This document shows positions 6,480 through 49,174 of a DNA stretch of 64,000 bases, piece after piece. The notes beneath the pieces are model-generated. The model saw only the letters and a program-made list of their open reading frames with translations. It searched no databases and was not told the DNA's origin. How positions within the stretch are numbered: the first letter of the stretch is position 1; each line of letters begins with the position of its first letter. Source of the stretch: an uncultured Bacteriovoracaceae bacterium (lineage in GTDB: Bacteria > Bdellovibrionota > UBA1018); NCBI GenBank assembly GCA_964536965.1, contig CAZIAL010000004.1, positions 6,614 through 70,613 of the forward strand. Reading direction: 5' to 3'. The position numbers were made by a program, and so were the translations under genes.

Positions 6480-6616
6480 GGGGAAAGGACTACCAAACCG
6501 TTTCGGGGAAAGAAACAAAGGGGAGGTCTGTCGCAGCGAGCTACGAAAGATCGCCTACTCTCAAGCCCGATTCTTCGCGAACTTACACCAAGAAAACTTT
6601 CCGTCGACCGCGCCGC

Positions 6617-31884: not shown

Positions 31885-33856
31885 AAACGCTTCTTCCGCG
31901 GCCACTGGCGCGGGCAAACCCGACTCTTCCACTGACAAAAAATCTGGGAAGGCGGCCGGGAAAAAACTCGACCCCACAAATGAAAAAAATATCGAGCAGG
32001 CGCTCGAGCAGGACCTCGCGCGCGTTCACGAACTCGTGAATGAAGGCCAGCCTCTGCTCGCGTCGGGCGGCGAAAGCGCCTTCGCGAAAAACAAAGACAT
32101 TAAAAAGCTTCTCGATATGGGAGTCCAGCGCGGCTACCTGACCTACGAAGAAGTGAACGAAATGCTGCCGCCGGAGATCACGCAGCCGGCGCAGATCGAC
32201 GAGATCATGAATCTCCTCGCCGAGAGCGACATCGAAGTCATCGACTCGATTCGTAAAGCGCGCGACGGCGACGAAGAAGAAGGCGATGCGACCGGACCGG
32301 GCCCCGCGAAATCCGATGACGACGACGATGAGCCGGCGCCGGCCGCGACCGCGGAACTCGCGCGCGGCGCGGATCCCGTTAAGCTTTACTTGAAAAAAAT
32401 GGGTTCGGTTTCGCTCCTGACCCGCGAAGGCGAAGTCGAAATCGCGAAGCGCATCGAAGCGGGCGAGATCGAAATTCTTCGCGCGCTTCTGGCGTCGAAG
32501 CTCGGAACGCTCGCGATCGTGGAGCTCGGCGAGCGCCTCGAGAGCGGCCGGACCAAAGTGAAAGATGTGATTCGCGGCGTGGACGAAGAAGTCTCCGCGG
32601 ACGACGAAAAAGTTTATATGGAGAAGGTTCTCTCCGCGATCACGAAGGTGAAATCGTTCGTCGCGTACCAGGAGAAGAACGCCGAGAAACTTTTCGGACC
32701 GGAAGGGCGCAAGCTCCCCGCCGAAGAAAAGAAGAAGCTCCAGGCGGAGGTGCAGAAACGCGAACGCCAGGTCGAAACCGCTTTCGAGTCCATCGCCTTC
32801 AACCGCAAGACGATCAACGTCCTGTCGATTAAAGTGAAGGAATACTCCGAGCGCTCGGCCGAGTACCTGATCGATCGTAAGAAGGTCTTCGATTACCTCG
32901 TCATCAAAGAGGAAAAAGAATTCAAGGAACTCGTGAAAGAGTTCAAAAAAGGCGGCGAAACGATTCCGGCCCTCTGCCGGAAGTACGACGTCGTCGAGTC
33001 GAAACTCCAGCAGCTCCTCCAGCAGGAAGAAGAAGTTTCGAAGAAGATCGAGAAGCTCGAAGAAGAATCCGGCATCGACATCATCGAACTCCGCCGGATC
33101 AACGACTCGCTGGCCGTCGGCGAACGCAAAGCCGACCAGGCGAAGTCGGAACTCGTCGAAGCCAACCTTCGTCTCGTGGTTTCGATCGCGAAGAAGTACA
33201 CGAACCGCGGTCTCCAATTCTTGGATCTGATCCAGGAAGGGAATATCGGTCTGATGAAGGCCGTCGATAAGTTCGAATACCGTCGCGGTTACAAGTTCTC
33301 GACCTACGCGACGTGGTGGATTCGCCAAGCGATCACCCGCGCGATCGCCGACCAGGCGCGTACGATCCGCATCCCGGTGCACATGATCGAAACGATCAAC
33401 AAGCTGATCCGTACCTCCCGCCTCCTCGTCCAGCAGCTCGGCCGCGAGCCGACGCCGGAAGAGATCGCCGTGAAGATGGAGCTTCCGGTCGACAAGGTCC
33501 GCAAGGTGCTGAAGATCGCGAAAGAGCCGATCTCCCTCGAAACGCCGATCGGCGAAGAGGAAGATTCGTATCTGGGCGATTTCATCGAGGACAAGAAGAT
33601 CATCAACCCGGCCGAAGCCGTGATGAACATCAACCTCTCGGAACAAACGCGGAAGGTCCTCGCGACCCTCACCCCGCGCGAAGAGAAAGTTCTCCGGATG
33701 CGTTTCGGGATCGGCGAGAAGTCCGACCATACGCTCGAGGAGGTCGGCCAAGACTTCTTCGTCACGCGGGAACGGATTCGTCAGATCGAAGCGAAGGCGC
33801 TGCGGAAGCTCCGTCACCCTTCGCGCGCGAAACTCCTGAAGGCGTTCGTCGATTAG
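31871..33856 (+). CDS. rpoD: RNA polymerase sigma-70 factor RpoD
   Basis: The ATG at 31871 overlaps the dnaG end by 14 nt. Motifs seen: region 2 [30 protein letters not shown] and region 4 [30 protein letters not shown]. Confidence 0.95.
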
Positions 33857-33868
33857 GGGACGGAACGT

Positions 33869-33907
33869 CAGCCCTAAAGGGCTGCTTGCCGGCCGGATGC
33901 CGGCAAG
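33869..33907 (+). terminator. two tandem GC-rich hairpins after rpoD (no U-tract)
   Basis: Hairpin 1: CAGCCC-taaa-GGGCTG (33869-33884). Hairpin 2: CTTGCCGGC-cggat-GCCGGCAAG (33885-33907). Confidence 0.45.
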
Positions 33908-33923
33908 CGTGAGTACCTGAATC

Positions 33924-35147
33924 GTGGAAATGACCAAATTTAGAAATAGGATGCAGGGAGTTCTTCCATCGGAAGAACTCCCTTCGTTTTTCGAGGCGCT
34001 GGAGGCGATGGGAATGCGGCCCCGAAAATCGATCCGGATTCGCCGTGACCTTGCCCCCGATTCCACCTGGGACCCGACGGCCATTCGCGAAGCGGGAATT
34101 CCCCTCGGCGAGCCGGTGCCCTGGTACGACCGCGGATTTTTCTTCGACCTGAAGCAAATGAGTCCGCATCCGTCGCGCCATCCCTGGATCGCCGCGGGCC
34201 TGGGGTTTATCCAGGAGGCTGGCGCCATGGAAGTGGTGCCCGCACTCGAAGTGGAGCCGGATCATCTCGTGCTCGATCTCTGTTCCGCGCCGGGCGCGAA
34301 GGCGAGCCATATCGGCGAATACCTGGGGACAGGGGGATGGCTCGTGGCGAATGAACCTTCGCGGGATCGCGCCAAGTTGCTCGATGCGATTCTGGCTCGC
34401 CATGGAATCGGAAACTCCACGGTGCTGAATCTGGAGCCGCGGGATCTCGTGCGATCTTTCCGTGAGCTCTTCGATCGGATTCTGGTCGATGCTCCCTGCA
34501 GTGGCGAGAGTCTGTTTGCGAAACGCGAGGAGCGGCGGAAGGACGTTTCCGACAAGGAGGTCGAACGCTGTGCGCTTCGGCAGAACGCGATCCTCGAGTC
34601 GGCCCATGCGCTCTGTGCCCCGGGGGGGCGGATCGTCTATTCGACCTGCGCTTATTCGCGAAGTGAGAACGAAGAAGTAATCGAAACGATGCGTGAGCGG
34701 CATCCCGATCTCCGGCTTCTCCGGGAACAGCGTCGTTTTCCGCACCGAGACGGGGTGCCGGGAGGATATTTCGCGGTGCTGGAAAAGGCGGGAGCGCCTT
34801 CCGCAGCTGCCGATCGTATCGCGACGCTCCGCGAGAGCATTCGGGGGCTCGGAACGCGGGGACTGGTCCGAAATGGGCTAAAAAAGTGGGACGGGAGCAT
34901 CGATGGATATGCCGTCGTCATGGACCGGAAGACGACGGAAGCCTCCGCCGACTCGCGAATGAGCCGACTTTTTCCCGGGATTCGCGGGGAGTTTTTCGAA
35001 CTCGGAATGGAAGAGGCCGCGCGATTCCTCGGGGGAGAGCGGCGTGCGAAAGTCGCGCGCGGAGTTTTCGCGATTTATCGGTGGGGCGGCGAAATCTTCG
35101 CCGCCGAAACGGATGCGACACTTTTCTATCCGCGGCATCGCCTCTAA
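33924..35147 (+). CDS. RsmB/RsmF-family rRNA cytosine-C5 methyltransferase
   Basis: Motifs seen: VLDLCSAPGAKASH, ILVDAPCSGESLF and RIVYSTCAYSRSENEEV. The start is uncertain (GTG 33924 or ATG 33930). Confidence 0.85.
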   Translation: MEMTKFRNRMQGVLPSEELPSFFEALEAMGMRPRKSIRIRRDLAPDSTWDPTAIREAGIPLGEPVPWYDRGFFFDLKQMSPHPSRHPWIAAGLGFIQEAGAMEVVPALEVEPDHLVLDLCSAPGAKASHIGEYLGTGGWLVANEPSRDRAKLLDAILARHGIGNSTVLNLEPRDLVRSFRELFDRILVDAPCSGESLFAKREERRKDVSDKEVERCALRQNAILESAHALCAPGGRIVYSTCAYSRSENEEVIETMRERHPDLRLLREQRRFPHRDGVPGGYFAVLEKAGAPSAAADRIATLRESIRGLGTRGLVRNGLKKWDGSIDGYAVVMDRKTTEASADSRMSRLFPGIRGEFFELGMEEAARFLGGERRAKVARGVFAIYRWGGEIFAAETDATLFYPRHRL

Positions 35148-35208
35148 CCGATGATTTTTTGACGCTTTTTGCTTGTCTAAACGGTGCCTTCCTCGACAAG
35201 ATCGCCTC

Positions 35209-36537
35209 ATGCAAATGAATGCGCGTTGGGTACAGGGGAGTACTGTCGGTGGGATGTGCGGAATTGCGCTCGGGCTAGGCATGGCGATTTTCGCCGCTCC
35301 GAGTTTCGCCGAAGATGAGATCGGAGTGCAAAACACGGGGAAGAGTCGAAACTCCGTGCGATCTCTCCCCGCTCGCCGGGCGACGGTTCCTCGTCCGATT
35401 CGGCCGGCGCCGCGCCGAGGACAGGAGCAGGCCGTCGATCTAGGTGCCTTGTCTTCTTCCACTGCTTCCACGCCCGCCGCGACTTCTTCCGCGAAGATGG
35501 GCGGACTGAGTCCACACGGGACCAGCAGCGTGATGCCGAACTTTAAGTTCTACTTCGACTTCCTGGCCAAGAGCTGGAAAGGGGATCCAACCCGGAGCTC
35601 CTTCGACTTCGACAGCTATCACCAGCGGATGCTCGTGGAGTTCACCCCGACGCCGGAACTGATGTTTCAAGCCGATATCTCCGCTTGGCAAACCCCGGAG
35701 TATTTCGAGGTCGACTATCAGCTGACCAAGCGCCTCCAGCTTCGTTGGGGCAAAATCTGGATTCCTTTCGATGATATGTCGCCGCACTCGATTTTCGGCG
35801 GACGGATCAACACGAGCGAATTTTTCCAAGGAAACGAAACCGCATTTTTGCCGAGCATCTGGGCGGACGCGGGGATGGGCGTGAAATACGACCTCGCCGA
35901 TTCACCTTCGTTCGCGTCGGTACTGCATTTCTATGTCGTCAACGGTTTCGGCAGTAATACGAACTCTCCCGTTTCCGGAGAAAACGGCGTCGTCGAATAT
36001 CCTGACTTCGGATCCACTTCCCGTTTCAGCACCACCGGCGCCACGGACAATAACAATAACAAGGCGATCGGCGCCCGTTGGCAAAGTAAGCTCGGACGTC
36101 GTTTCTCGATCGGCGGTTCGGTTTACAACGGCGCCTATACGAACAAAACCGCGGTAAAATCCCAGTCCATCACGATGCTCGGCGGAGACGCGCAACTTCG
36201 ACCTTCGAATACGACGGAAATTCGCGTCGGGATCGTCTCGATGAAGGTCGGGTTGAACGCTCCGGCGACGAAAGAGAGCTTCACCCGCGCGGCGAGCTAC
36301 GTCGAACTCGGTCAGCGATTCGGGCAAGACGATCGCTGGAAGTTCTTGGTTCGCGCGGGAAAAGCGCAGAACGATAACCGAGTGGTGGATGTGTCGGATA
36401 AGACCCTCGTCGGAACGACTTTGCTTCGCAGCTTCGGAAATATCGAAGCGCAGTTCACGTTTTACAAAGACATGAACAAGGTGCCGACGAAGATCGCTTA
36501 CAATTACGGGCATTTCCGACTCGTAACGGCGTTTTAG
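35209..36537 (+). CDS. putative outer-membrane beta-barrel protein
   Basis: Signal MQMNARWVQGSTVGGMCGIALGLGMAIFAAPSFA, alternating beta-strand-like sequence, and a terminal ...FRLVTAF (aromatic C-terminus). Confidence 0.65.
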   Translation: MQMNARWVQGSTVGGMCGIALGLGMAIFAAPSFAEDEIGVQNTGKSRNSVRSLPARRATVPRPIRPAPRRGQEQAVDLGALSSSTASTPAATSSAKMGGLSPHGTSSVMPNFKFYFDFLAKSWKGDPTRSSFDFDSYHQRMLVEFTPTPELMFQADISAWQTPEYFEVDYQLTKRLQLRWGKIWIPFDDMSPHSIFGGRINTSEFFQGNETAFLPSIWADAGMGVKYDLADSPSFASVLHFYVVNGFGSNTNSPVSGENGVVEYPDFGSTSRFSTTGATDNNNNKAIGARWQSKLGRRFSIGGSVYNGAYTNKTAVKSQSITMLGGDAQLRPSNTTEIRVGIVSMKVGLNAPATKESFTRAASYVELGQRFGQDDRWKFLVRAGKAQNDNRVVDVSDKTLVGTTLLRSFGNIEAQFTFYKDMNKVPTKIAYNYGHFRLVTAF

Positions 36538-36735
36538 GCTTCGGTCGCCGACACAGGTTCCGCGACCATAATATAGAGGCATCATTCCACGCGCGGGGGG
36601 TGGCCCTGTCTACGGTTTTGACAGGTGGTTAAAAGGGGTGCATTTTTTTATTGTAATACCTGACTAGAATGGTAAATTATTAAGAAGTCGCTGTACGTAT
36701 GTTGTGGGGAAATTGGGGAATCACGGGGGTGTTTC

Positions 36736-38037
36736 TTGGCAAACGTATTTGGCGCATTGAATTCGCGGAATCTTGGAATCAGCGGGGCGCTCGCCTCGGC
36801 GATCCTACTCGCCTCGCCAGTGGCATTCGCCGCTGACCCGGACCAACCTCACATCGATAAGGCGCGCCTGATTTATCAGCGCCTCGCCGGCCGGACGCCG
36901 AAAATTACCGAAGCCAACTTCGTGGCCATGGTCGCGGACGTGAAAGCGGGTCGTCTCGTCGATGCCGCCGCGAAGGCGAGCTCGGACGCAGGCTTCGTGA
37001 ACAACACCCTTCGTCTCTTCGCGGCTCCGATCAACGCGAAGTCGCAGACGTACCAGGCCCTCGACCTGACTCCGGGGATGGCTTACATCATGGGCAAAGT
37101 CCGCGATGGCGCCCCGATCAAGCAGCTGCTGACGGGAAAAGATTATTACAACATCGATCTGACGGGCGTCACCTGTAACAACAACGAAAACCCTTTCGCT
37201 TGTGCGACCCGCCTCGATCTCGATCTGAGCACGCGTCTGGTGCTGAGCAATACTCCGCAGCAGCCGATCATGTCGACGACGAACGGTGCGAACGGCGGCG
37301 CTCGCCAGCCGGCGCAGGTTCCTGCGAGTGAAATCGCCGGACTGTTCACGATGGAAGGCTTCGGCAGCGCCGGGCTTTTCGCGGGTACGAACCGCGCTCC
37401 GATCCAGCAGTTCTACAACCAGCTCTGGTGCACGCCGAACCAAAACCTTCGCGCCACCCAGGACGTGATCGGTAAATGGGTCGGTCGCGACATCAGCCGC
37501 GATCCAGAAGGCACGGGTCTCACCGTTTTCCGCAAAGAGTGCCAGTCGTGTCACTTCGCCATCGACGGCATGCGTGGAGCTTTCGCTTTCTTCGATACGG
37601 TGGATGTGAACGACCGCAACCTCGTCGCCTATGCGGCGAATGCCCAGGGCGTTCCGACGAACGCCGTGGTTCCGAAATACGCTCGCGGCGTGGCGACCTA
37701 TCCGGCGGGATACGCCGTGGTCGACAACTCCTGGGAGCTGATGTTCACGGCGGCGCAGAAAGCGACGCTCGGTTACGACGGCTCGGGCCCGACCTCGGGT
37801 CGCGGCGTCGCTTCGATGGCCGAAGCGCTTACGCACTTCGACGCTCTCGAGAAGTGCATGGTGAAGAAAGCCGCCGAACTTGTTTGCCCGGTGGATCCGA
37901 ACCTGAGCACGCTCGGAACGAACCAGCTGCTGAGCGACAAAGCGAAGCAAGAGTTCGTCGATGAACTGAAAAATTCCGGAAATCTTCGCAAGATTTTCGA
38001 AATGATCGCAGTTCGCCCGGAGTGCCTGGGTAAATAA
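36736..38037 (+). CDS. secreted CxxCH protein, PSCyt3/DUF1588-DUF1592-like
   Basis: TTG start and a signal ending PVAFA/AD. Motifs seen: LIYQRLAGRTPKITEANF, and ECQSCHFAIDGMRGAFAFFD, which resembles the CxxCH-xxxDPxGF signature as I remember it. Confidence 0.6.
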   Translation: MANVFGALNSRNLGISGALASAILLASPVAFAADPDQPHIDKARLIYQRLAGRTPKITEANFVAMVADVKAGRLVDAAAKASSDAGFVNNTLRLFAAPINAKSQTYQALDLTPGMAYIMGKVRDGAPIKQLLTGKDYYNIDLTGVTCNNNENPFACATRLDLDLSTRLVLSNTPQQPIMSTTNGANGGARQPAQVPASEIAGLFTMEGFGSAGLFAGTNRAPIQQFYNQLWCTPNQNLRATQDVIGKWVGRDISRDPEGTGLTVFRKECQSCHFAIDGMRGAFAFFDTVDVNDRNLVAYAANAQGVPTNAVVPKYARGVATYPAGYAVVDNSWELMFTAAQKATLGYDGSGPTSGRGVASMAEALTHFDALEKCMVKKAAELVCPVDPNLSTLGTNQLLSDKAKQEFVDELKNSGNLRKIFEMIAVRPECLGK

Positions 38038-38092
38038 TCGATCGGTTCGTCTTAGGGGATTTATTTCGGGGAAGAAGATCCGGGGGGATCAT

Positions 38093-38770
38093 ATGAATTC
38101 GAAAATCAAACTTTCAGCGAAGATGGTCGGAGGAGCGCTCGCGGTGTTACTCGCCGGCGGGTGCGGCATGGGGAAAGATCTCTCCGACGGCCTCGCGACG
38201 CCATCCACGAACTACGCGCAGTCGGAAGCGGTCTTTAAAGAGGTGAGCTACGGCGAAGCGGTCGGTACCGTCGTCACCCCGAACTTCCGTTCGGCGACTT
38301 CGCAGTTCCTCGATCTGATGGGGATCACGCTCGCGCAGGCGAACGCCGTGCGCGGAGTGCTCGGAAGCGCGCAGGGCAACCTTCCGGAGATCGGTGTCTC
38401 TTCGAACATGGGCGCGAACCAGGTTTTCGCCTATACGAAGATTTACAACGCCGCTTGCAACGACAAGTGCCGGCTCGACCGCGCGGGCACGACTCCGGCG
38501 GGCGAACGCGCCTGCGTCTTTAACTTCGGCCAGGCTTATAACTCCGCCGGAAATTTGGCGGCCTGGGATGCTTCGATGTCGAAGTTATCCGAACTCCTCT
38601 GGGGTCGGACCGAAATCACCGCCGGCGAAAAGGCGGCTCTCGATACGCTCCGGAACGAAGTGGCGGGCGTGGCCGCGGGCAAGGGCCTGAACGTTGCGGA
38701 TACCACCACGGCGGCCTTCCAGGCGGTCTGCGTGGCCATGGCGCTCGCGCCGGCCCATATCGTTCAGTAA
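38093..38770 (+). CDS. lipoprotein, PSD (DUF1592/1595)-like
   Basis: Lipobox LLAGGCG. LSELLWGRTEITAGEKAALDTL resembles the RxPTxxE block of PSD domains. Four Cys residues. Confidence 0.55.
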   Translation: MNSKIKLSAKMVGGALAVLLAGGCGMGKDLSDGLATPSTNYAQSEAVFKEVSYGEAVGTVVTPNFRSATSQFLDLMGITLAQANAVRGVLGSAQGNLPEIGVSSNMGANQVFAYTKIYNAACNDKCRLDRAGTTPAGERACVFNFGQAYNSAGNLAAWDASMSKLSELLWGRTEITAGEKAALDTLRNEVAGVAAGKGLNVADTTTAAFQAVCVAMALAPAHIVQ

Positions 38771-38872
38771 GTCCGGAGGTTTTCGGGCGGGGGCCCGTGA
38801 ACTTGAATAGTTAACCAGGGTTTAGGCGGTTTAGGTTTCAGTCGAAAAAGATTCGGGTACCAAGGGGGCTTT

Positions 38873-40414
38873 ATGCTAATTCGGATTCACAAACAATCTA
38901 AGGACTTTCTCGACGGCAAACAGCACGATCCCATGCTGAATCCCGAGCGACGCCAGTTCCTTAAAGAAGGATTCGCCGGCGTCGGCTCCCTGCTGATCAT
39001 GCCCGGAATGCTTTCGCTGCTTCGGGCGAATCCAGCCCGCGCCGAAGTGTTGGCCTGTAACCAGCGCCCACTCGGAACCACCTTTACCCAAGTCAGTCTT
39101 TCCGGCGGTAACGGGACGAGCTCGATGGTTTACGCCTGGGACGCCGCGGGCGCTCCGCTCCTCGGGAACAGCCGTTCGCTCGGAACCTTCGCGAACAGCG
39201 GCCAGGACACGACTTCGATCGCGGGACTGACCCTTTCGCAGTCCGATATGTTCTCGACCTTCCTTCGCGGCGGCGGCGGCGGAACGCTGACCGTGAACGG
39301 CACGAACATTCCGCGTCTTTTCGACGCGGCGATGACGACCACGATTCTTTCACGCCTCTCCGGCGGAGCGGTCGCCTGCCCGAACGATGACGACACCGAT
39401 TCGAATCCGCTGAACGTGATGAAGTTCTTCGGCAACCGTTGCGGTCTCCGTAAAGGGGTCATCGCCGACGTCGCGGGTAACCCGGCGCGGGAACTTTCGA
39501 TCGACGGCCTGCGGAACAACTTCTCGACGCTCCAGCTCGGCGGAAACCTCGCCAACGTCGGCGCGGCCGCCACGCTCCAGAGCAATACGCTGAACGACTC
39601 TCGCCAGGGCGAGTCGCTGAAAGCGGCCGTGGACAAACTGACGAAAGAGCAGTCGGGTAAACTCGGTGGAAAAGTCGGCTCGGCCGACTTCGTGAAGAAT
39701 ATGATGGCGGGACTCGACGCCGCGAAGGTGAAGTTCGATCCCGTCTATGCCGCCGACGCGCTGGATCCGACCCGCCCGGTGAACGCCGCGGTCCTCGATC
39801 CTGCGAACGGTCTGCGGATGAACTACGCCAACCTTCCGGCCGAATTCAAGCGGATCGTCACGCTCACGGACGCGCTCACGAAGCAGAACTTCGGCGCCGT
39901 GAACATGACCTTCGGCGGATTCGACTACCACCTGAACTCGCCGGCGGTGCAGCGCCAGGAGCGCCACGCTTTCGTCGCGCGGATGATCCTGGTCTGGGCC
40001 GCGAACCATATCCTTCGCCAGACCAACGGCGTGATGATGATCAACACCGACGGTGGGATCGGATTCAACGACCAAGCCCAGAACACGGTCGCGAACGGCG
40101 ACGCCGGTTCGAAGAACATCACGCTCATGATCCACGTCCAAGGGGCGGGCGCCGCCGCGGCGAAGCCAGTCTTTAAACTCGGCGGACGTTTCGGAGCCCT
40201 CGCGGTTTCGGAAGCCGCTCAGCGGGACAACGTTTTCGCTTCGCGCCGGGAAATGCCGAGCGTCGCGATCCTTTACACCTTCGCCCTGCTCTCGGGGCTG
40301 GTCGTAAATGGACAGCCGAGCGAAACGGAGTTCTTGGCGGCGATCAACGGAGGGCTGAACCTCCTGCCGGGCGGCGTCGCCCAGCTTCGCTCGCTCAGTC
40401 TGTTGCGGACCTGA
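38873..40414 (+). CDS. Tat-exported protein, distantly DUF1501-like
   Basis: ATG with AAGGGGG upstream. Twin-arginine motif ERRQFLKEGFAGVGSLLIMPG...ANPARA, and GGFDYHLNS (compare DUF1501 G-W-D-T-H). The family call is weak. Confidence 0.6.
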   Translation: MLIRIHKQSKDFLDGKQHDPMLNPERRQFLKEGFAGVGSLLIMPGMLSLLRANPARAEVLACNQRPLGTTFTQVSLSGGNGTSSMVYAWDAAGAPLLGNSRSLGTFANSGQDTTSIAGLTLSQSDMFSTFLRGGGGGTLTVNGTNIPRLFDAAMTTTILSRLSGGAVACPNDDDTDSNPLNVMKFFGNRCGLRKGVIADVAGNPARELSIDGLRNNFSTLQLGGNLANVGAAATLQSNTLNDSRQGESLKAAVDKLTKEQSGKLGGKVGSADFVKNMMAGLDAAKVKFDPVYAADALDPTRPVNAAVLDPANGLRMNYANLPAEFKRIVTLTDALTKQNFGAVNMTFGGFDYHLNSPAVQRQERHAFVARMILVWAANHILRQTNGVMMINTDGGIGFNDQAQNTVANGDAGSKNITLMIHVQGAGAAAAKPVFKLGGRFGALAVSEAAQRDNVFASRREMPSVAILYTFALLSGLVVNGQPSETEFLAAINGGLNLLPGGVAQLRSLSLLRT

Positions 40415-40454
40415 TGGCCCATCGCGGTTCTGACGGTGACTTAAGGGGAACGTT

Positions 40455-41642
40455 ATGCGGAAAAATTTCCTAAAATTAGCGGTAATCGGGTGGGCGTTCG
40501 CGCTCACGGCCTGCGTACCTATGACCATGATCGGCGGCGGTAAGTTGGAAGACGCCGCTATGGCGGTCTATCCGATTCGCACCGATGTATCGGACCTCTC
40601 CAGCGGTCTGGAAGCTTTCCGTACGGTGGTGGCCCCACTCATCTCCGATTCTCAGTGTACCGCCTGCCATACGACCCAGGCTCCGACCCTCGGGTCTTCG
40701 GTGATCGAGATCGCTTACGAAGCCGCGATCTCTCGGTTGAATAAAACGAATCCCGCATCTTCCGCGATCATCTCGAAATCGCAGGATGGCCACTGCGGGG
40801 GCTGCTCGACCGCGTCTCGTTCCGACTGGACTTCCGCAATCGAAACCTGGGCGCGCGTCGAAGTCGCGCTCGGCGGTAGCGGCGGCGGGCCTGGCCCCGC
40901 CGGTCCCGGAGCCCAGCCGGCGAATCCTCCCGTCGATCTCGGCACGCCGCCGGTCTTCATGACTCCGGTCCAGCAGATGAACGGCACGGGCGGAAACAAC
41001 CGACTGATCTCGCTCGCCGGCCGCGGCGGCGCGTTCGGCGGGGTGAGCCTCATGATCAACCTCCAGGATCCGTACGCCGCGGTGGCGAACACGGCGCGAA
41101 TCTTCACGGTTCGGCTCCAGAACAACTCCGGCAGCTATATCCTGGTCCGCGGAATCCGGATTTTCCAGAGCCAGGATGCGAACGTCGACCCGACCAATCC
41201 CCAGGACTTCCTCCCGGACGTCGGCGCGGCGTTTAGCGACGTCGACGCGGTCATCTATCCGAATGCGACGACCCAGCTTTCCTTCGGCGAAGCGCTGATG
41301 TCGAAATCCGACGGCCTCTTCTACGCCTTCGGATTCCAGGCGCTCGAAGTGACGAACGCACCGACGTGCAAAGCCCAGGCGGTCTTCAACAATACGGTGA
41401 ATCCGATCCTGAACGCTTGCACGGGCTGCCACAACGCCGGAGGGTCCGGATCGGGCCGCTGGACGCTTGCGGCGGACGCGACCAATCGGTGCCTGCAGTC
41501 CTTGCAGCGCTCGGATCTGAACACTCCGATCGCCTCTCGCCTGATTCAGGCTCCTCGGTTCCGGGTGCCGAACCATCCGAACCAGGCGCTGAACGACGCG
41601 CAGGTCGATACCATTATCAACTGGATCACGCTGGAACAGTAA
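40455..41642 (+). CDS. lipoprotein with two CxxCH (PSCyt1-like) modules
   Basis: Lipobox FALTAC. Motifs seen: VVAPLISDSQCTACH at the N-terminus, VNPILNACTGCHNAGG near the C-terminus, and a Gly/Pro linker with a beta-rich middle region. Confidence 0.65.
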   Translation: MRKNFLKLAVIGWAFALTACVPMTMIGGGKLEDAAMAVYPIRTDVSDLSSGLEAFRTVVAPLISDSQCTACHTTQAPTLGSSVIEIAYEAAISRLNKTNPASSAIISKSQDGHCGGCSTASRSDWTSAIETWARVEVALGGSGGGPGPAGPGAQPANPPVDLGTPPVFMTPVQQMNGTGGNNRLISLAGRGGAFGGVSLMINLQDPYAAVANTARIFTVRLQNNSGSYILVRGIRIFQSQDANVDPTNPQDFLPDVGAAFSDVDAVIYPNATTQLSFGEALMSKSDGLFYAFGFQALEVTNAPTCKAQAVFNNTVNPILNACTGCHNAGGSGSGRWTLAADATNRCLQSLQRSDLNTPIASRLIQAPRFRVPNHPNQALNDAQVDTIINWITLEQ

Positions 41643-41681
41643 TAGAGAATCCGCTCAAGCAGCCTCTTAACTTTGGTTTCT

Positions 41682-42557
41682 ATGAGCGAACGATCTCTCC
41701 TGACAGTTTCAAAACGACATATGGCCACGGATTTCCATTTCGAGGTCGTGGTCGATGATCGGACTCTCCGCGCGGGAGACTCGGTGCTCCTCGAAGCGCA
41801 TGCGGCGGTCGATTCCATCGAAGACGAGCTCACCGAATTTCGCGACCCTTCCCCAGTTCGGTGGCTGAACGACGCTGGCGTCGGCGAGTGGGTCGCGCTC
41901 ACTCCCCATTTCCAGCGCATTCTCGCGCAGTCCCTTCGGCTCCAGAAGGAATCCGCCGGTTACTTTTCGCCTTTCGCGAAATCGGAAGGGGAATTCAGCG
42001 AGGGCGATCTCGAAATCGAAAGGGATCGCGTGCGCAAGCGAGCGGACGGACTCCGCATCGGATTCGGTGCGATTGGAAAAGGTTATGCGCTCGACCATGT
42101 ACGCCTCCTGCTCGAGCGGCACGGCTTTCTCGACTACCGGCTGAACTGCGGTGGATCGAGTTGGATTCTTCGCGGCGGCAACGCCGGAGGCGGGCCCTGG
42201 GAAATCCAGTGGGCCTGGGACCGCGACGCCGATGGGGACTATCGAGGCCAGGCGCTCGCTCTCCGTTCGGACGAGTCCCTTGCCATCGGCGTTTCCGGGG
42301 TACTCGAGCAGGGGAATCATTTTCGTTTTCGCGGGGCGCCGGCGCCCGACGGGATCATCAGTGGATTTTATGCCGGTCGATCGGCCGCCGAGGCCGACGC
42401 ACTCTCCACCGCGCTCTTCGTGGGCGCGAGTCTCGAAGGCGCCGAAATCTTGACGAAGCTCGGGAGCGTCTTGCGAGATCCGTCGCTCGCATATGTAGAT
42501 AAGACCGGACAGATCGTTTACAATCGATGCTTCGAGAAACGTTTTGGGCAGTCCTAA
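41682..42557 (+). CDS. apbE: FAD:protein FMN transferase (ApbE family), no signal peptide
   Basis: Motifs seen: HMATDFHFEVVV, GFGAIGKGYALDHV, NCGGSSW and AADALSTALFV. An in-frame stop at 41643-41645 excludes a longer N-terminus. Confidence 0.85.
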   Translation: MSERSLLTVSKRHMATDFHFEVVVDDRTLRAGDSVLLEAHAAVDSIEDELTEFRDPSPVRWLNDAGVGEWVALTPHFQRILAQSLRLQKESAGYFSPFAKSEGEFSEGDLEIERDRVRKRADGLRIGFGAIGKGYALDHVRLLLERHGFLDYRLNCGGSSWILRGGNAGGGPWEIQWAWDRDADGDYRGQALALRSDESLAIGVSGVLEQGNHFRFRGAPAPDGIISGFYAGRSAAEADALSTALFVGASLEGAEILTKLGSVLRDPSLAYVDKTGQIVYNRCFEKRFGQS

Positions 42558-42585
42558 CCGCAGTCCGTTCGAACGAGGAATGATC

Positions 42586-43113
42586 ATGCAATCGAAGAAG
42601 AAAACGTCCCTCATCAAGTCCACTTTTCTGACCGCCGCGATGGTCGTCGAACTTTCGCGGATGAGCGCGTTCGCCACGGAGTTCGAGCCGCTCGGCAAGG
42701 CGATCGAGGGCACCTTAGGAACCAAAAAGGCTTTCAAGAAAAGTTTCGCGTTCGAAGGAAAGCCCCTGGACGTGTTTTATGCGAAGGATGGATCGGGTAA
42801 ACCGACCAAATTCGCTTTCGTGCAGAAGGGAATTTACGAGCCGAACTGCACCCACACCTGGATCGTCGGGGTCGAGGCGGGCAGCGGAAAAGTTTCCCAG
42901 GTTCGCGTGGTGGAAATGTCCTGTCCCCATGCTTATCCGACGAAAACCGAAAGCTTTTTGGGTCAGTTCAAGGGCAAGGGAGCGAAAGACGCTCCGAAGC
43001 TGAAAGCGGATATCGCGACGATCGCGAAGGCGACCGGCTCCTCGGTTCTCGCCATCGATGCGGTTCGCCGATCGGTGGTCGCCGCTTCGAAGCTGAAAGG
43101 GAAAATCAAGTAA
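42586..43113 (+). CDS. secreted FMN-binding-domain protein (ApbE substrate candidate)
   Basis: Signal KKKTSLIKSTFLTAAMVVELSRMSAFA. FMN_bind-like features seen: WIVGVEAGSGKVSQVRVVEMS, FLGQFKGKG and ADIATIAKATGSSVLAIDAVRRSV. Confidence 0.75.
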   Translation: MQSKKKTSLIKSTFLTAAMVVELSRMSAFATEFEPLGKAIEGTLGTKKAFKKSFAFEGKPLDVFYAKDGSGKPTKFAFVQKGIYEPNCTHTWIVGVEAGSGKVSQVRVVEMSCPHAYPTKTESFLGQFKGKGAKDAPKLKADIATIAKATGSSVLAIDAVRRSVVAASKLKGKIK

Positions 43114-43142: not shown

Positions 43143-43916
43143 CTAGAGCGCCTTCTTCGCCTTGGGCGAGGAAGGCGTTTTCGTTTTATTTCCACGTTCC
43201 ATGGTGGGCGCACCTGCCGCGCCGGACGCGGGTTCATCCGGAAACGCCGCGAACGAAATCTTGCTCTTTAGCGCGTCGTAGAGATCACCGACATTCATGC
43301 TCTCGATGTTATATTTCTTATCCTTCGGATTCTTCGGATAACAAACGAAGGCGGTGAAATCGAAGCTGTCGATCTTAATCGCCATCTCGTTCAGCTGCAC
43401 CTTCTTCGGCTTCGCTTTCGAGCCCGGCGGCGGGAGCTGAACGCGCTCCTTCTGGAATCGGGTGAGCGGGTGGTTGATGTAATTCCCTCGCGCATCCGTG
43501 CCGTTCAGGCCGAAACGGAAACGAGTGGGTGGGGCTTCTTTCGCCGCTTTCGGGTTCTTCTTAAGATGGGCGAGGTAGTCGGCCGTAAATTCGCCTTCTT
43601 TATGGGACGGATCCTTCAGTTCGTCCTCGCGACCGTAGGTCACCTTCGCGGTGAAATCGTCGGGGCGCGGACAGCGGCCGATTCGCGTGAACCCGTTCGC
43701 ATTCTGCCGGAGCGAGCATCGAATATGCTTGCTCCGGGACGGAATGGGAATGTCCGCGACGCCTTCGTTGGTCTTAAATTCGTTCCGAAAGCAGAACTCC
43801 GTGTTTTTCAGCGTCTCTAGATTCTGGATCCGCAGGTTTTCCGTCTCCGGGTCCGCGATCGCGAGCGATGCGGGGAGGAGGGAGAGCACGGCCAACGCGA
43901 AAGGAAGCTTTCTCAT
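43143..43916 (-). CDS. secreted Cys-containing hypothetical protein coupled to the RND pump
   Basis: Signal MRKLPFALAVLSLLPASLAIA. Four Cys residues and a Lys/Pro-rich tail. Its ATG overlaps the RND stop (ATGA at 43913-43916). Confidence 0.7.
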   Translation of the reverse strand: MRKLPFALAVLSLLPASLAIADPETENLRIQNLETLKNTEFCFRNEFKTNEGVADIPIPSRSKHIRCSLRQNANGFTRIGRCPRPDDFTAKVTYGREDELKDPSHKEGEFTADYLAHLKKNPKAAKEAPPTRFRFGLNGTDARGNYINHPLTRFQKERVQLPPPGSKAKPKKVQLNEMAIKIDSFDFTAFVCYPKNPKDKKYNIESMNVGDLYDALKSKISFAAFPDEPASGAAGAPTMERGNKTKTPSSPKAKKAL

Positions 43917-46900
43917 TTCCCGATATTAAACCGAGCCAGTCGAAGTTGGAACGAGTCCAAAACGGCGAAAGCGGAAGGCAGCACGAAAAGCGTCAATAAG
44001 GAGCCGCCGACCAGACCCCAGCCGAGTGCCATCGCGATGGGAACGACGAACTTATCGATCCCTCCGATCCCGTAGGCCGTCGGCATAAGCCCACAAACCG
44101 TCGTAAACGTGGTCAGGAAGATCGGACGCAAACGCGTGGAAGCGGCGCGTACGATGCTTTCGGGACCCGCTTTTCCTTCGGCGCGTTCCTGGTTTACCGC
44201 GTCAATGAAGACGATCGCATTGTTCACGATCACGCCCGCGAGGGCGATGATTCCGAGCATGCCCATGAAGCTGAGGGGAAGCTGATGGATGAAGAACGCC
44301 CAGATCACGCCGATGATCCCGAACGGGATGGAAGCCAGGACGAGCAAAGGCTGGAGAATCGACCCGAAGGTCAGAATGAGAATGAAAAGAATGCCGAGTG
44401 CCGCGATTCCGAACGCGCGAATCATGGACTGAAGGGACTCCTGCGTATCTTCGTCTTCGCCTCCGAAGGCGAAACTCACGTTCGGAAACCGGGTCCGTAG
44501 TTCGGGAAAGAACTCCGCGATTTTCGCGCTCATCTGGGTCGCGGACGAAAGGCTCGTATCGATCTCTCCGAGCACCCGGACTTCGCGTTCGTTGTTCTCA
44601 TGCTCGTAAGACGTCACCCCGCGATGGCTTTTCAGCTTCGCGACGCGCGAGAGGGGCACGAGGTTGCCCTGGGCGTTCGGCACGAGGATCCGGGAAAACG
44701 AGTCTTCGTCGGCACGGTCACTTTTCGGAAATGAGACGCGAACGTCCACTTCATCGTCGAGGCTGCGGATGGAAGTCGCGACGATTCCGTCGAAGGCGGC
44801 GCGAACGGTATTTCCGATCTGGGCGACCGAGAGCTGCGCGGCCCGTGCCTCGCTCCCGTCGACGATCAGCCGGATCTCTTCCTTCCCTTCGGCGTAAGAG
44901 TTCATGATGTCGAGCGCACCGGGAAGGGATCGCACTTTCTCCTCGAGGGCGTGCACCGCGGGAAGGATCTCCTCGAAAGTATTCCCCCGAACCGCGACGC
45001 TGATCGGCTTCCCGACCGGCGGGCCTCCCCCCGCGCGTTCGAAGGTCAGCGCGACGATCTCCGCCGGCTTCGCGACTTGCTTCTTCATCGCCTCGATGAT
45101 CTCGGCCGCGGTCCGGGTGCGGTTCTCTTCCGGATGCAGGTAAACCGCGATTTGCCCGACATGGCTTCCTCGGCGCGTATTCGGATCGTTGGGTTCCTCT
45201 TGCTGGACTCCAACGAAAGTGACGTAATCCTTCAGCTCGTTCTTCGGCAGGGTCTGGAGCTGTTTTTCGATGTCGATGAGATAGGCTTGGGTGGTTTCGA
45301 GGCTGGCACTCGTCGGCGCCGTCAGCCGGACGAAGAAAATCTCGATTCCTTCCGGAGGAAACAGGACGAAGCGCATGGTCGACGCGACCCCGATACTGAC
45401 CACGAAAAGGAGTCCGGCCGCGCCGACGGTCTTCCATTTATTCAGGACGAGTTTCGTCAGGACGCGAGCATAAGCAGGGGTGATCCGGTGATCCCACGTC
45501 CGCTTGAACCATTCTCCGAATCGCCCGATTCCTCGCAGTTCAGTCACGCTCGGAAGGACGTCTTTCCGTCGGACGAAATGGGCGATGTGCTGTGGCAGGA
45601 TGAAGAACGCCTCGAAAAGGGAAGCGGCCAAGGCGAGGATGACGCCGACCGGGATCTGCCGTACGAATTTTCCGAAAATACCGCTCATAAAGAGCATCGG
45701 AAGGAACGCCATGGTCGTGGTGAGAACGGATGCGGTCACCGCTTTCCAGATTTCCTGGGTGCCCTTGCGAGCGGCGTCCTCCGGAGAGTCGCCTTGCTCC
45801 ATCCGACGGGCGGCCGCATCCATTACGACGATCGCGTCATCGACGAGCATTCCGGAAACGATGATGAAGCCGAGCAAGGAGATCAAATTCAGGCTGAATC
45901 CGAGGTAGTGGAACAGGATCATGCCGCCGAGGAAAGAAAACGGAATCCCGAGCGAGACGATCATCGCCATTCGGAAGCGAAGAATCAGCGTGAGAACGAT
46001 CAGCACGAGCACGAGGCCCACCATCAGATTTCCGGAAAGGATTCCGATCCGGCGGTCGATGTATTCCGACATGTCGTTCACGAGCGTGTACTCCACGCCC
46101 AGTTTTCCCAGCCGATCCCTTTCTTTCGCCATGTGGGCCTTCACGACGTCGACGACCTTGATCGCGTCGGCGCGTTCCTTCTTCAGGACGGTAAGGCTGA
46201 TCGACGGCGCGCCGTTCGTCCGGCTGAGCGTTTTGGCTTTTTCGAGTCCGTACTGGACGTGGGCGACGTCGGCGACGCGGATGGGGCGGCCGAAGTCGTT
46301 CGCACGGATCACGGTGCGCGCGACCTCGTCCGCGTTCTTGAATTCGCCGACGGTCCGCACGAGTTTTTCCTTCTCGTCGATGGTAGGATTCTTCGCCTCG
46401 AGAGTTCCGGCGGGGACCGATACGTTTTCCCCGTCCAGCGCCTGGACGACCTCGTCCAGGGAGAGACGATAGCGAGCCAGCTTCGACGGATCCGCCTCGA
46501 CCTTCACTTCGAGGTCGCGGATTCCGAGGGGAGAGACCTTCGCGACGCCCGGAAGTTTTTCGATTTCTTTTTCGAGCGCGCGGGCGATCGCCCGAAACTC
46601 GACCGGATCAAGCGTGCTTCGGAGGGAGACCTCTACGATCGGGGTGAGCGTGCTCTTCACCGCGACGGCCTTCGGATCTTCCGCGCCGGACGGAGCGTCG
46701 AACAAATCCAGGATATCCTGGACGTCCGCTTTCGCTTCCGTTTCGGTCGTCTGATCGGGGTCGAGCTGGAGAATGATTTCGCTCATTCCTTCGACGGAAA
46801 CCGATCGCATTTTTTTAATGCCATCGACTTCGCGCAGATCCTGTTCCAGGGGGTTCGTCACCAGTTTTTCGACTTCTTCGGGCGACGAACCGGGAAATAC

Positions 46901-47050
46901 GGTGGAGATCGAGAGAATGTCGAAGTTCACGTTCGGGAATACTTCGCGGCGAATCAGGAAAGTCGAAGCAAGACCGACGACGACGACGAATAAGGTCAGG
47001 AGATTGCCGAAAAGTTTTTGCCGGACGAAATAGGCGATTAGGGCGTTCAT
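43913..47050 (-). CDS. RND efflux transporter (AcrB/CzcA superfamily)
   Basis: 1045 aa with a 12-TM architecture and two large periplasmic loops. The N-terminus reads [21 protein letters not shown]...[24 protein letters not shown]. Confidence 0.92.
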   Translation of the reverse strand: [1045 protein letters not shown]

Positions 47051-48579
47051 GGCTTCGCCTCGCCCCCGGGCTGACCCGTTCCGAGTTCATAAAGACCGCC
47101 TTCGGTCTCGAGGACCTGCCAGGCCGCGAGCCGGCGCTCCACTTCCGAGCGCTGCAGCGAATGCTCGGCCGCGACGCGATCATCCGAGGCGATGACCACC
47201 TGGGTAAGGCCCGATCGTCCGATGCGAAATCGGCTTTCCTCCAGGCGAAGACGTTCGGACTGGAGATTGAAAATGTCCCGGGCTCTCCGGTGGGCCTGTT
47301 CCTTGGTTTCGAGGCCGATGCAGCGATTCGTCTTCAGCACCTTCTCCTGGTCCCGTTCACGATCCGCCACCGCGCGCGCGCGAACGGCCTGGGTCGCCGC
47401 GAGCTGGGCGTCGCCTTTCACGGAGGAAGGTCCGATCGGAATTTCCGCCGCCAGCTCCACGCTCCAGGCGGGAAAGGTGCGCTGTCCGACCGTCCGCCCC
47501 GTTTCCGCGCGCGAAATTCCGTCGATCCCGTTCGCTCCATAGGTCCCGTTCAGCACGATATCGAAGCCCTCTTCGGCCCGGAGGCTCGCGGCCGTGGCTT
47601 CGAGTCCCTTCGCCTGGGCGTCCGCGGCTTTCTTGCGCAGGGATTCGGTACCGCGACCGGACTCTTTCGCGTAGGCCTGGCAGCGCGCGCGGGCGAGGTC
47701 CATCGGAGAATCGAGGTCCACCGGAACGGTCATCGGGTCCACGGCGAGGAGCTCGCGGGGAAGATCGAGAGAGATGATCAGCCCTCGCCAGACGTCGCCC
47801 AGGATTCGTTTCGCTTCTTCAGTCTCGTTTTCGGAAGCCTTCAGTGCGGATTCGGACTGCAGCACGTCCGGGCGCTCGGCCGTGCCCCGGCGGGAACGAA
47901 TTCGCGTGACGGCCAGCAGGTCGTTCTTGTTCTTCAGGTTGTTTTCTGCGGCTCGGACATCGGCCTGTCCAAGCCACGCGCGGTAATAGGATTCGATCGC
48001 GCCGAGGGTCGTGCGATCCAGTTCCGATCGATAAGCGAGTTCGTTCGCCGTGCGGCCCGTTTCTCCGGCGGAAAGGCGCAAGCGATCCGCTCCGTACCAC
48101 AGTCCGCGGAGAAGGCTCTGACGAGCGGAAAGGATGACGCGAGATTCGTAATACGGCGCGATCGCCGTGCCCGGAAAATTCAGGGACGTATTGCTGTGCT
48201 GGAGTTCCACGCCTAGGCGGGTTCCGGTCCATTGCAGCCCCTGCTGGTATCCGAGGAAGTAAGTCGTGGAAGTGTTCCGATTCGGCGCGAACGGATTCGA
48301 AGGCTCGAAGCGGTCGTCGAGTTTGCGCATTCCGAAATTCAGGCGCGAGGCGAGGGGAGCCATCGCTTGGAAGTAATTTGCATCGAGCGAGAGCTGGCTT
48401 GCGTCCACGGCCCGATACACGGCGGCCGACTTCCGCGATTTTTCGAGGACCGTGCGGAGGGTCAGGCGAAAGCCGGGAGGAATCCCTGAAGGAGGGGATT
48501 CCGCCGAAATCCCGTCCGAAGGGGTCATCAGGCTGGCGAGAAGTACGAAAGTGAAGACAGGCAAATGGAGCTTCAACAT
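47047..48579 (-). CDS. TolC-family outer-membrane efflux protein
   Basis: ATG at 48579 (MLKLHLPVFTFVLLASLMTP). Two repeated coiled-coil/beta halves. Its stop overlaps the RND start. Confidence 0.85.
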   Translation of the reverse strand: MLKLHLPVFTFVLLASLMTPSDGISAESPPSGIPPGFRLTLRTVLEKSRKSAAVYRAVDASQLSLDANYFQAMAPLASRLNFGMRKLDDRFEPSNPFAPNRNTSTTYFLGYQQGLQWTGTRLGVELQHSNTSLNFPGTAIAPYYESRVILSARQSLLRGLWYGADRLRLSAGETGRTANELAYRSELDRTTLGAIESYYRAWLGQADVRAAENNLKNKNDLLAVTRIRSRRGTAERPDVLQSESALKASENETEEAKRILGDVWRGLIISLDLPRELLAVDPMTVPVDLDSPMDLARARCQAYAKESGRGTESLRKKAADAQAKGLEATAASLRAEEGFDIVLNGTYGANGIDGISRAETGRTVGQRTFPAWSVELAAEIPIGPSSVKGDAQLAATQAVRARAVADRERDQEKVLKTNRCIGLETKEQAHRRARDIFNLQSERLRLEESRFRIGRSGLTQVVIASDDRVAAEHSLQRSEVERRLAAWQVLETEGGLYELGTGQPGGEAKP

Positions 48580-48648
48580 GGGGTCATTCGGATCTGGGGA
48601 AGGCGCGAAGTTATCGCGGTCCGCGAGAAATGACAACGAAGCTTGCGT

Positions 48649-49074
48649 CTACAGGACGAGAGTTCGATACGCGAGGCGTGCCCAGATCACCCAGAGCGAG
48701 AGCGATCCGATGGCATAAGTCATCGCTCGCGAGCGGACGTGGTTCGTCGTGCAGTGGATCAGACTATGGAGGATCCGAAACAGGACGAAAAACCATGCTG
48801 CGGCAAGGTAGAAGGGGTCCGTCGCGTTCGTCACCAAGATCAGAAGGATGGCGACGTAAAAGAGCACCGGCATCTCAAAGAGGTTCTCGAAATTGTCGTT
48901 GGGGTTCGCGACGTCCTTCAGGATTCGCTCCGCGTCGGCGCCATCCGCCAGCGACTGGGGCCGGATCCGATTCCGAACGATGAAGGAGACTCGTGAATAG
49001 ATCAACCACCCCCAGACGATGAACGTCAGGCCGACCTGGGCGAAGAGCGGGTAAAGGATGGATTTAACGTGCAT
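48649..49074 (-). CDS. MAPEG-family membrane protein
   Basis: ATG at 49074 gives 141 aa and four TMs. NPNDNFENLFEMPVLFY resembles the MAPEG N-x-x-E-N-x-P motif. Confidence 0.65.
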   Translation of the reverse strand: MHVKSILYPLFAQVGLTFIVWGWLIYSRVSFIVRNRIRPQSLADGADAERILKDVANPNDNFENLFEMPVLFYVAILLILVTNATDPFYLAAAWFFVLFRILHSLIHCTTNHVRSRAMTYAIGSLSLWVIWARLAYRTLVL

Positions 49075-49174
49075 CGTCGAAGGGTCTCTTAACCGGTTCC
49101 GAGAATCAATCGCGGAGAAGTCCCGGCGGAGATTCCATGGCGGCGGTTTTGGACGGCTGTGGTAACCGAAATTC

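Follow-up and report, generated by a model that had tools for sequence, protein, structure and literature searches.

We propose a model for an operon of probably seven genes, U and A to F, the last six at positions 36736 to 43113 of a 64,000-nucleotide stretch of DNA from an uncultured Bacteriovoracaceae bacterium of the Bdellovibrionota (contig CAZIAL010000004.1, positions 6,614 to 70,613 of the forward strand; this whole stretch is hereafter the window), in which the encoded proteins constitute an envelope haem-metalloenzyme system wired to a flavin carrier, a reading to which we assign a probability of about one half. In this model protein C, exported by the twin-arginine translocation (Tat) route and presumed to be the catalytic subunit, would bind and transform its substrate at a predicted metal site, with A as its soluble periplasmic haem partner. 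The haem of A, the two haems of D and the flavin of F would form an electron path from the site in C to the membrane pool, and the lipoproteins B and D would tether the system and relay electrons. E, an ApbE-family protein, would load F, and F would link to the membrane electron pool, to which a NapH-like protein may give access in some genomes; the equivalent partner for the window would be encoded elsewhere in the genome or be a cytochrome. The product of U, the gene upstream of A, would provide outer-membrane passage or anchoring. The model would thus entail complex formation among the products, electron flow through them, flavinylation of F and redox catalysis. The observations that carry it are the gene content, synteny, invariant motifs, export signals and remote homologies of the operon.

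The PSCyt/PSD proteins and their DUF1501 or DUF1552 partners have ranked, ever since their first description in Rhodopirellula baltica, with the most abundant uncharacterised protein families of the Planctomycetes and Verrucomicrobia. The proteins described here would make up a wider, un-modelled branch of the PSCyt/PSD design, consisting of A, C and a large protein that we call Dbig, with at least 595 metagenomic copies, together with the minimal version seen in the window, whose domains are each encoded as small proteins of their own. In both branches a link to covalent-flavin electron carriers recurs, the carriers being of two unrelated types, and this would give a first functional pointer for the PSCyt/PSD design, towards envelope redox chemistry. 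Four of the families (A, B, C and U) are missed by current domain libraries, and the ApbE/FMN_bind variant, with a signal-less E and an F that carries a Cys2His2 set, departs from the standard rules of flavinylation. Should a bolder and less likely extension of the model, taken up below, hold, then by remote homology hundreds of PSCyt/PSD-DUF1501/DUF1552 pairs in the Planctomycetes and Verrucomicrobia would be envelope redox enzymes of a new class, and the small split operon, compact enough for expression, haem and flavin staining and knockout, would be an experimentally tractable model of that class.

Translation of the window confirms six co-directional open reading frames (ORFs), with gaps of 55 nt between A and B, 102 nt between B and C, 40 nt between C and D, 30 nt between D and E and 28 nt between E and F, the last assuming that F starts at the ATG at 42586 with GAGGA 6 nt upstream. 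They are preceded by a 198-nt leader of 48% GC against 59% for the window, and with U, whose order relative to A is conserved, the unit probably comprises seven genes (U, A, B, C, D, E, F). The first-pass annotation of this DNA had given the same layout, six co-directional genes with gaps of 28-102 nt behind a 198-nt leader, and most of its readings of export signals and motifs hold in the translations: A carries ECQSCHFAIDGMRGAFAFFD behind an AFA-A Sec-type signal peptide, C carries the twin-arginine motif ERRQFLK and also GGFDYH, and D combines an LTAC lipobox with two CxxCH motifs (CTACH and CTGCH), each in a V-x-P-[IL]-[IL] context. For B the lipoprotein assignment stands, with a lipoprotein-type Cys after a hydrophobic leader that is conserved in the family, but the RxPTxxE block read by the annotation is not literally there, the sequence being WGRTEITAGE.

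The haem proteins and their Tat-exported partner

Gene A (36736..38037, forward strand) encodes a Sec-exported mono-haem protein with the haem motif CQSCH at residues 269-273. Within the family C269, C272, H273, D277 and G-T-N (217-219) are invariant, exactly one CxxCH is present in 92 of 92 homologues, and a pattern scan of metagenomes found at least 595 stretches that encode relatives. The A of the window has no match to a PSCyt or PSD family in Pfam even at E<=1, and does not reach the gathering scores of PSCyt3 (PF07627, DUF1588) and PSD2 (PF07624, DUF1585). When 84 members of the family were compared with Pfam, PSD2 was matched by 50 (best E 1.2e-6), PSCyt3 by 29 (best E 0.0035) and PSCyt2 by 11, with no other family recurring and PSD4 matched by none. 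These weak matches, mostly below the cutoffs, are collinear: PSCyt2 falls in the N-terminal part, PSCyt3 on the CxxCH and PSD2 in the C-terminal part, where positions ~6-68 of the 74 in the PSD2 model are spanned; A has in this way the feature that marks membership, a CxxCH inside a region resembling PSCyt3, with a PSD2 region after it at the C-terminus. Because the family-level matches recur and are collinear, A is most reasonably read as a minimal and very divergent relative of the PSCyt3-PSD2 module. The AlphaFold2 (AF2) model of A is confident, with a predicted local distance difference test score (pLDDT) of 81, yet Foldseek found nothing for it in the PDB (best E ~1). A single-sequence search of the PDB with A returned nothing useful, as did the same search with C, and the PDB matches of profiles of C, A and U, where there were any, were confined to the CxxCH region or the Tat leader.

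Genes B (38093..38770) and D (40455..41642), both on the forward strand, encode lipoproteins, D being a di-haem c-type cytochrome with a beta-rich middle domain. No member of the B family matches Pfam. The C-terminal domain of D passes the Pfam Cytochrom_C cutoff (PF00034; 25.6 bits against 21.3), and the PSCyt1 cutoff (PF07635) is passed by the D orthologue of locus L089 alone (26 bits against 22) and not by the D of the window. In the metagenomic loci, which represent the far commoner environmental form, the place between A and C is taken by Dbig, an unannotated protein of ~810-880 residues (typically ~830) with two invariant CxxCH motifs at its N-terminus, Laminin_G_3 in 34 of 34 members, and a further C-terminal domain. 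Profile alignment with hhalign relates the haem domains of D to those of Dbig (98% probability, E 1.5e-14) and B to residues 659-821 of its 821 (90% probability, E 1.5e-6), and both B and Dbig end in ...Q; together, B and D would be the split equivalent of one ~830-residue di-haem/lectin Dbig protein. Exactly two CxxCH are found in every D and Dbig homologue, and with the single motif of A this bears out the expectation that the CxxCH cysteines are conserved in orthologues.

Gene C (38873..40414, forward strand) encodes a Tat-exported protein of 513 residues (about 50 kDa). It has just two close homologues among 5.8 billion proteins, and when 1.84 billion cluster representatives were searched with a HMMER profile, 65 relatives were obtained, of which 63 were scanned. 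Across these 63 representatives R27, G78, G79, D174, D351, H353, G394 and D410 are invariant, as is the twin-arginine motif in the family. None of the 63 matches DUF1501 (PF07394) or DUF1552 (PF07586) in Pfam at E<=0.1, the C of the window has no such match at E<=1, and TAT_signal is the sole Pfam family that recurs. The AF2 model of C is confident (pLDDT 86, predicted template modelling score 0.85), and in it the invariant residues lie on or immediately after predicted parallel beta-strands. The top 50 Foldseek matches of this model in the PDB all belong to the alkaline-phosphatase superfamily (E 0.013-0.36), among them sulfatases, alkaline phosphatase, iPGM, ENPP, LtaS and MCR-1. DUF1501 itself belongs to the alkaline-phosphatase clan of Pfam. 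With moderate confidence, and on the strength of a predicted structure, C may be assigned an alkaline-phosphatase-like metal-binding alpha/beta core with a predicted Asp/His site; no conserved Ser, Thr or Cys nucleophile was identified in it. By position C corresponds to DUF1552 and not to DUF1501, because DUF1552 usually adjoins PSCyt3 genes. C was also considered as a flavinylation target and set aside, since the C of the window lacks [S/T]G[AGS][S/T] and the family has no invariant Ser or Thr.

The flavin module and gene order in relatives

Gene E (41673..42557, forward strand) encodes a divergent ApbE-family flavin transferase (PF02424; E = 7.6e-22, 78.5 bits against a cutoff of 25.6) whose best PDB match is Salmonella ApbE (2e-7). 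It retains G-x-I-x-K-G-Y and the conserved Ser, His and Asp columns, which plausibly represent the published Asp-Ser-His triad, but only 23 of the 90 positions invariant in canonical ApbE. No signal peptide is present in E of the window or in its orthologues in L002, L003, L089, L094 and L092, and in the window an in-frame stop codon precedes the start by 27 nt; the ApbEs of a more distant metagenomic clade, unlike E, carry leaders.

Gene F (42586..43113, forward strand) encodes an FMN_bind/RnfG-like protein with a Sec-type leader, a candidate flavin carrier. The first-pass annotation had named E and F as ApbE and an FMN_bind protein; the former assignment is secure, whereas F falls short of the Pfam FMN_bind cutoff (PF04205; 13.3 bits against 22, E 0.14). 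Against the NCBIfam RnfG model F scores E 1.1e-3 (18.6 bits against a cutoff of 205), with residues 66-189 aligned to model positions 62-187 of 190. Among more than 286 homologues of F a few are named FMN-binding or carry PF04205, the latter being seen in 2 of 120 listed relatives. The motif AKATGS is invariant, without a conserved Asp, and retains the Ala-Thr core of the flavinylation motif at the expected position. In known substrates only the Thr of this motif is essential, and Asp-to-Ala and Gly-to-Ala changes are tolerated (PMC12052999). Flavinylation of F is, judged by its motif, plausible. E and F are adjacent in every context seen, with stop and start codons often overlapping, and the gene just before F is always an ApbE gene. 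The ApbE-F pair forms a portable module that accompanies A-D in several Bdellovibrionota lineages and a NapH-like polyferredoxin in other genomes.

When one genome per species was scanned, the cluster turned up in an Oligoflexia metagenome-assembled genome (MAG; L002), in the order U-A-B-C-D-E-F, and in a Bacteriovoracaceae MAG (L003), from B to F. In L094 and L095 the order RpoD, RsmB-like, U, A, B, C, D, ApbE, F is that of the window, flanks included. Protein identity between the window and the relatives that share its gene order is 47-87%. Because the same order recurs in full in L002, L094 and L095 and in part in L003 and L001, it reflects more than chance, and the conservation of gene order across genomes that the first-pass annotation had put forward for testing is observed. 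In the loci P0129 and P0183, for which gene sizes only are considered, ApbE-F appears to lie near blocks of A-B-C-D size, in P0183 together with a NapH-like gene. One of these two loci has an 1105-residue fn3 protein at the position of Dbig, and a second paralogous block, again judged by gene sizes, carries a PA14 protein. Searches of the PLSDB plasmids by tblastn with C and with an A-type protein gave no match.

In the distant metagenomic clade Dbig follows A in 62 of 62 loci and C lies downstream of A in 43 of 43, which makes A/Dbig/C a near-obligate core of this one broad clade. Here ApbE and DUF3570 stand in place of ApbE-F: DUF3570 is present in 25 of 25 loci, and ApbE in 8 of the 17 whose flanks are long enough, immediately after C in L030, L045 and L054. 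DUF3570 is an experimentally proven ApbE substrate (Meheust et al. 2021, PMC8238504). A NapH-like polyferredoxin adjoins E-F in L092 and L093, as in P0183, an arrangement that matches the published 'NapH-like' flavinylated systems (PMC8238504). The presence of two unrelated flavin carriers on the same A/D/C core therefore argues for functional coupling of this core to flavin-based electron transfer.

The environmental A-Dbig-C clusters are almost always paired with a divergent operon upstream of A on the opposite strand (L004, L011, L017, L022, L024, L028, L030-L032, L039, L043, L045-L048, L054 and others), which encodes an HZS_alpha-like protein (two CxxCH, ~870-1000 residues), an SH3+OMP_b-brl protein, a second outer-membrane protein, DUF4266 and DUF3570; the HZS_alpha-like di-haem protein is present in 50 of 52 loci. 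Directly after C, 14 distant loci, including L004, L009-L011, L013, L022, L024, L027, L032, L042, L058, L065 and L075, encode a ~450-residue CARME-like S-adenosylmethionine methyltransferase with a Trm112p-like zinc-ribbon N-terminus. An unannotated protein of this clade, 'X253', often adjoins ApbE or DUF3570, and was considered as a relative of F and rejected, no relation being found.

Gene U (35173..36537, forward strand) encodes a secreted protein of 454 residues, of an unannotated family, whose N-terminal linker is rich in Pro and Ala and whose C-terminus reads ...RLVTAF; it has no match in Pfam or the PDB and may belong to the outer membrane. In L002, L094 and L095 the gene immediately precedes A; it also adjoins D-E-F in L089 and L096, and adjoins ApbE-F-NapH in L092, where A-C are absent. 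Its neighbours suggest that U belongs functionally to the flavin/cytochrome module. In L092 (5340-11316) and L093, U and a 165-residue single-haem D-like protein travel with ApbE-F, the NapH-like polyferredoxin and TatA, without A, B or C. The idea that U is an analogue of DUF3570 was rejected (hhalign probability 0.3%), and the TTGAT motif of the window U is not conserved.

Alternative readings

Several observations weigh against the proposed model. The A-B-C block is inverted in L089-L091 and L096 with the orientation of U and D-ApbE-F unchanged, E-F-U occurs in L092 without A-C, and the A-B-C-D clusters of L006 and L007 lack E and F, while the 80 metagenomic loci represent one related clade, so that their counts are not independent events. 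The fold matches of C are individually insignificant (best E 0.013, TM-scores <=0.25), and the characterised enzymes of the alkaline-phosphatase superfamily are, to our knowledge, hydrolases, transferases or mutases and not oxidoreductases. A cytoplasmic E, as the lack of a signal peptide would imply, could not modify the Sec-exported F by the usual route; F itself is without the canonical D-x-x-[S/T]-G-A-[S/T] motif as well as an FMN_bind score above the cutoff, and its invariant Cys2His2 set suggests a metal site instead of a flavin. The window, finally, encodes no membrane electron-entry component, and a jackhmmer search of its 64 kb with the NapH-like protein (PF12801) of L092 found no counterpart. 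The first-pass annotation had described E and F as a periplasmic enzyme-substrate pair, a reading that the signal-less E and the non-canonical motif of F complicate. Its further expectation, that ApbE and F accompany A-D in related genomes, is borne out in this clade as a linkage, though a separable one that is missing from L006 and L007.

One alternative, which we regard as possible but clearly less likely than the proposed model, is that two independent modules are neighbours, A-B-C with D-type haem domains being a periplasmic nutrient-processing system that, for example, hydrolyses or binds a glycan or a phospho- or sulfo-ester, and U with D-E-F a separate flavin/cytochrome electron-transfer system that serves another purpose. 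The inversion of A-B-C, the small D-like cytochrome, U, E, F and NapH without A-C in L092 and L093, and the clusters of L006 and L007 would all follow naturally from it, as would the hydrolytic fold class of C and the lectin-type Laminin_G_3 of every Dbig, and He et al. tie PSCyt genes to carbohydrate use (PMC5615132). Two separate systems, however, would not be expected to stay adjacent across lineages at ~50% protein identity, nor would their adjacency be expected to outlast an inversion. The distant clade is moreover tied to the other flavinylation module (DUF3570 in all 25 loci, ApbE after C in L030, L045 and L054), the P0183 locus, by gene sizes, appears to join NapH-E-F with an A-B-C-D-sized block, and pure hydrolysis would hardly account for the three to five conserved haems of each system. 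A bolder extension of the proposed model, that A and C form a haem-dependent oxidoreductase on an alkaline-phosphatase-like scaffold, fed through di-haem lipoproteins and a covalent-flavin carrier, and that the PSCyt/PSD-DUF1501/DUF1552 pairs share this design, is at present tentative, and we would sooner doubt than accept it.

The flavin end of the model admits a different reading of F, as a periplasmic Cys2His2 metal protein (copper, zinc or iron-sulfur) on an FMN_bind/IscU-like scaffold, with E acting in the cytoplasm, for instance by flavinylating another protein or handling FAD. NCTHTW and SCPHA are invariant in 121 members of the F family, in which the fourth position of TGS[S/A/C] varies, and the best PDB profile match of F is IscU/NifU (E 0.045), with both Cys falling on cluster-ligand Cys. 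One relative of F has been named NifU-like by JGI. The missing leader of E fits this reading as well, since cytosolic ApbEs exist (ApbE review). Against it stand the constant E-F adjacency with often overlapping codons, the near end-to-end RnfG alignment, the invariant A-T at the expected flavinylation position and those members that pass PF04205 or are named FMN-binding; in addition, Fe-S proteins are normally exported by Tat and not by Sec. We consider it improbable that F carries a metal site to the exclusion of flavin; F may be a metal-binding variant of the FMN_bind domain.

The first-pass annotation had itself read the window proteins as split PSCyt/PSD proteins accompanied by a DUF1501-like partner, and taken literally, as ordinary Pfam members that are merely divided among several genes, this is the least probable of the readings, and we regard it as largely refuted by the sequence comparisons. 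The collinear PSD2, PSCyt3 and PSCyt2 matches of the A family speak in its favour, as do the L089 D orthologue that passes PSCyt1 and the GGFDYH of C, which we take to resemble the GGWDTH of DUF1501. No window protein, however, matches a PSCyt, PSD, DUF1501 or DUF1552 family at E<=1 in Pfam or NCBIfam, the very outcome that the annotation had named as refuting it, and 0 of 63 C representatives match DUF1501 or DUF1552. PSD4 is never detected, although PSCyt3 always occurs with it (PMC5615132), B is without any match, and B and D go back to an unannotated Laminin_G_3 protein and not to a PSD protein. What survives is kinship at the level of the A family and of the L089 D orthologue, though not of the window proteins themselves, the Tat signal of C with fold matches that are weak but all in the alkaline-phosphatase superfamily, and the idea of a split, with B and D as pieces of Dbig in place of a PSCyt/PSD parent.

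Known systems and the flanks of the operon

The A/C system shares with the PSCyt/PSD proteins a CxxCH-bearing secreted protein coupled to a Tat partner of ~450-530 residues, lectin or carbohydrate-binding domains such as Laminin_G_3 in the haem proteins of both, and the weak collinear PSCyt2, PSCyt3 and PSD2 matches. It differs in the size of A (~400 residues against ~800-1500), which lacks PSD3, PSD4 and PSD5, in a C that matches neither DUF1501 nor DUF1552, in having one more di-haem component, either Dbig or the pair of B and D, in the consistent link to flavinylation modules and in its occurrence in Bdellovibrionota and soil or sediment bacteria instead of the paralogue swarms of the Planctomycetes-Verrucomicrobia-Chlamydiae group. 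In planctomycetes PSCyt3/PSD proteins pair with DUF1552 and PSCyt2/PSD1 proteins with DUF1501, PSCyt3 pairing exclusively with PSD4 and adjoining a DUF1552 gene (He et al. 2017, PMC5615132). This group III architecture of PSCyt3, with PSD4 and a DUF1552 neighbour, is not seen in the A/C family, and the retrieved loci yielded no bona fide DUF1501 or DUF1552 protein.

Three features recall the ApbE-dependent extracytosolic flavinylation systems surveyed by Meheust et al. 2021 (PMC8238504): the gene directly after ApbE encodes a small secreted FMN_bind-like protein, E-F adjoins a NapH-like polyferredoxin in L092/L093 as in the NapH-like systems with their separate FMN-binding protein, and the distant clade carries DUF3570 with ApbE as do the DUF3570/DUF4266 clusters. 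In contrast to those systems the locus is without a NapH, MsrQ, PepSY, DsbD or Rnf/Nqr membrane partner, and the client proteins A, B, C and U are not described in the sections of that survey considered here (PMC8238504). The signal-less E and the F with AKATGS and an invariant Cys2His2 set are further departures from ApbE systems. Clusters associated with ApbE are already known, as are PSCyt/PSD proteins that have a Tat partner, whereas the papers considered here describe neither the four unmodelled families (A, B, C, U) nor their split arrangement, the recurrent flavin wiring or the atypical E-F pair.

The likeness of C to the alkaline-phosphatase superfamily lies in this being the sole fold class retrieved for its confident model and in the invariant Asp and His residues on or after predicted parallel strands, as at the metal sites of alkaline-phosphatase type. 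It differs from the superfamily in the lack of a significant sequence or fold score and of a conserved nucleophile, and in long helical insertions at residues 243-336. We know of no member of that superfamily with an obligate coupling to c-type cytochromes such as C shows.

Upstream of A, a block of ~33 nt at 36651..36683 on the forward strand, TTGTAATACCTGACTAGAATGGTAAATTATTAA, is promoter-like, with TTGTAA and TAAATT 16 nt apart, and is near-identical in the leader of L002 (~7800-7850), though the flanking proteins there are just ~50% identical; it could be a promoter or an operator. A riboswitch was considered and finds no support, as an Rfam search of the leader, this block included, gave no match. 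Downstream, a terminator-like hairpin with a 17-bp stem (43145..43181, forward strand) lies between the convergent genes F and 43143-43916(-). In the window ~6 kb of reverse-strand genes (43143-49272), comprising a family-less secreted protein of 257 residues, a resistance-nodulation-division efflux pump at 43913-47050 and two further genes, separates F from an alpha-amylase-like homologue at 49175-50728; in L003 an alpha-amylase-like gene (5127-6743) directly follows F. Long antisense ORFs of up to 796 residues at 31838-34228(-), 36805-37950(-), 39350-40528(-) and 40476-41576(-) overlap rpoD, A, C and D; they lack homologues in the conserved loci and resemble the spurious ORFs that GC-rich DNA usually gives.

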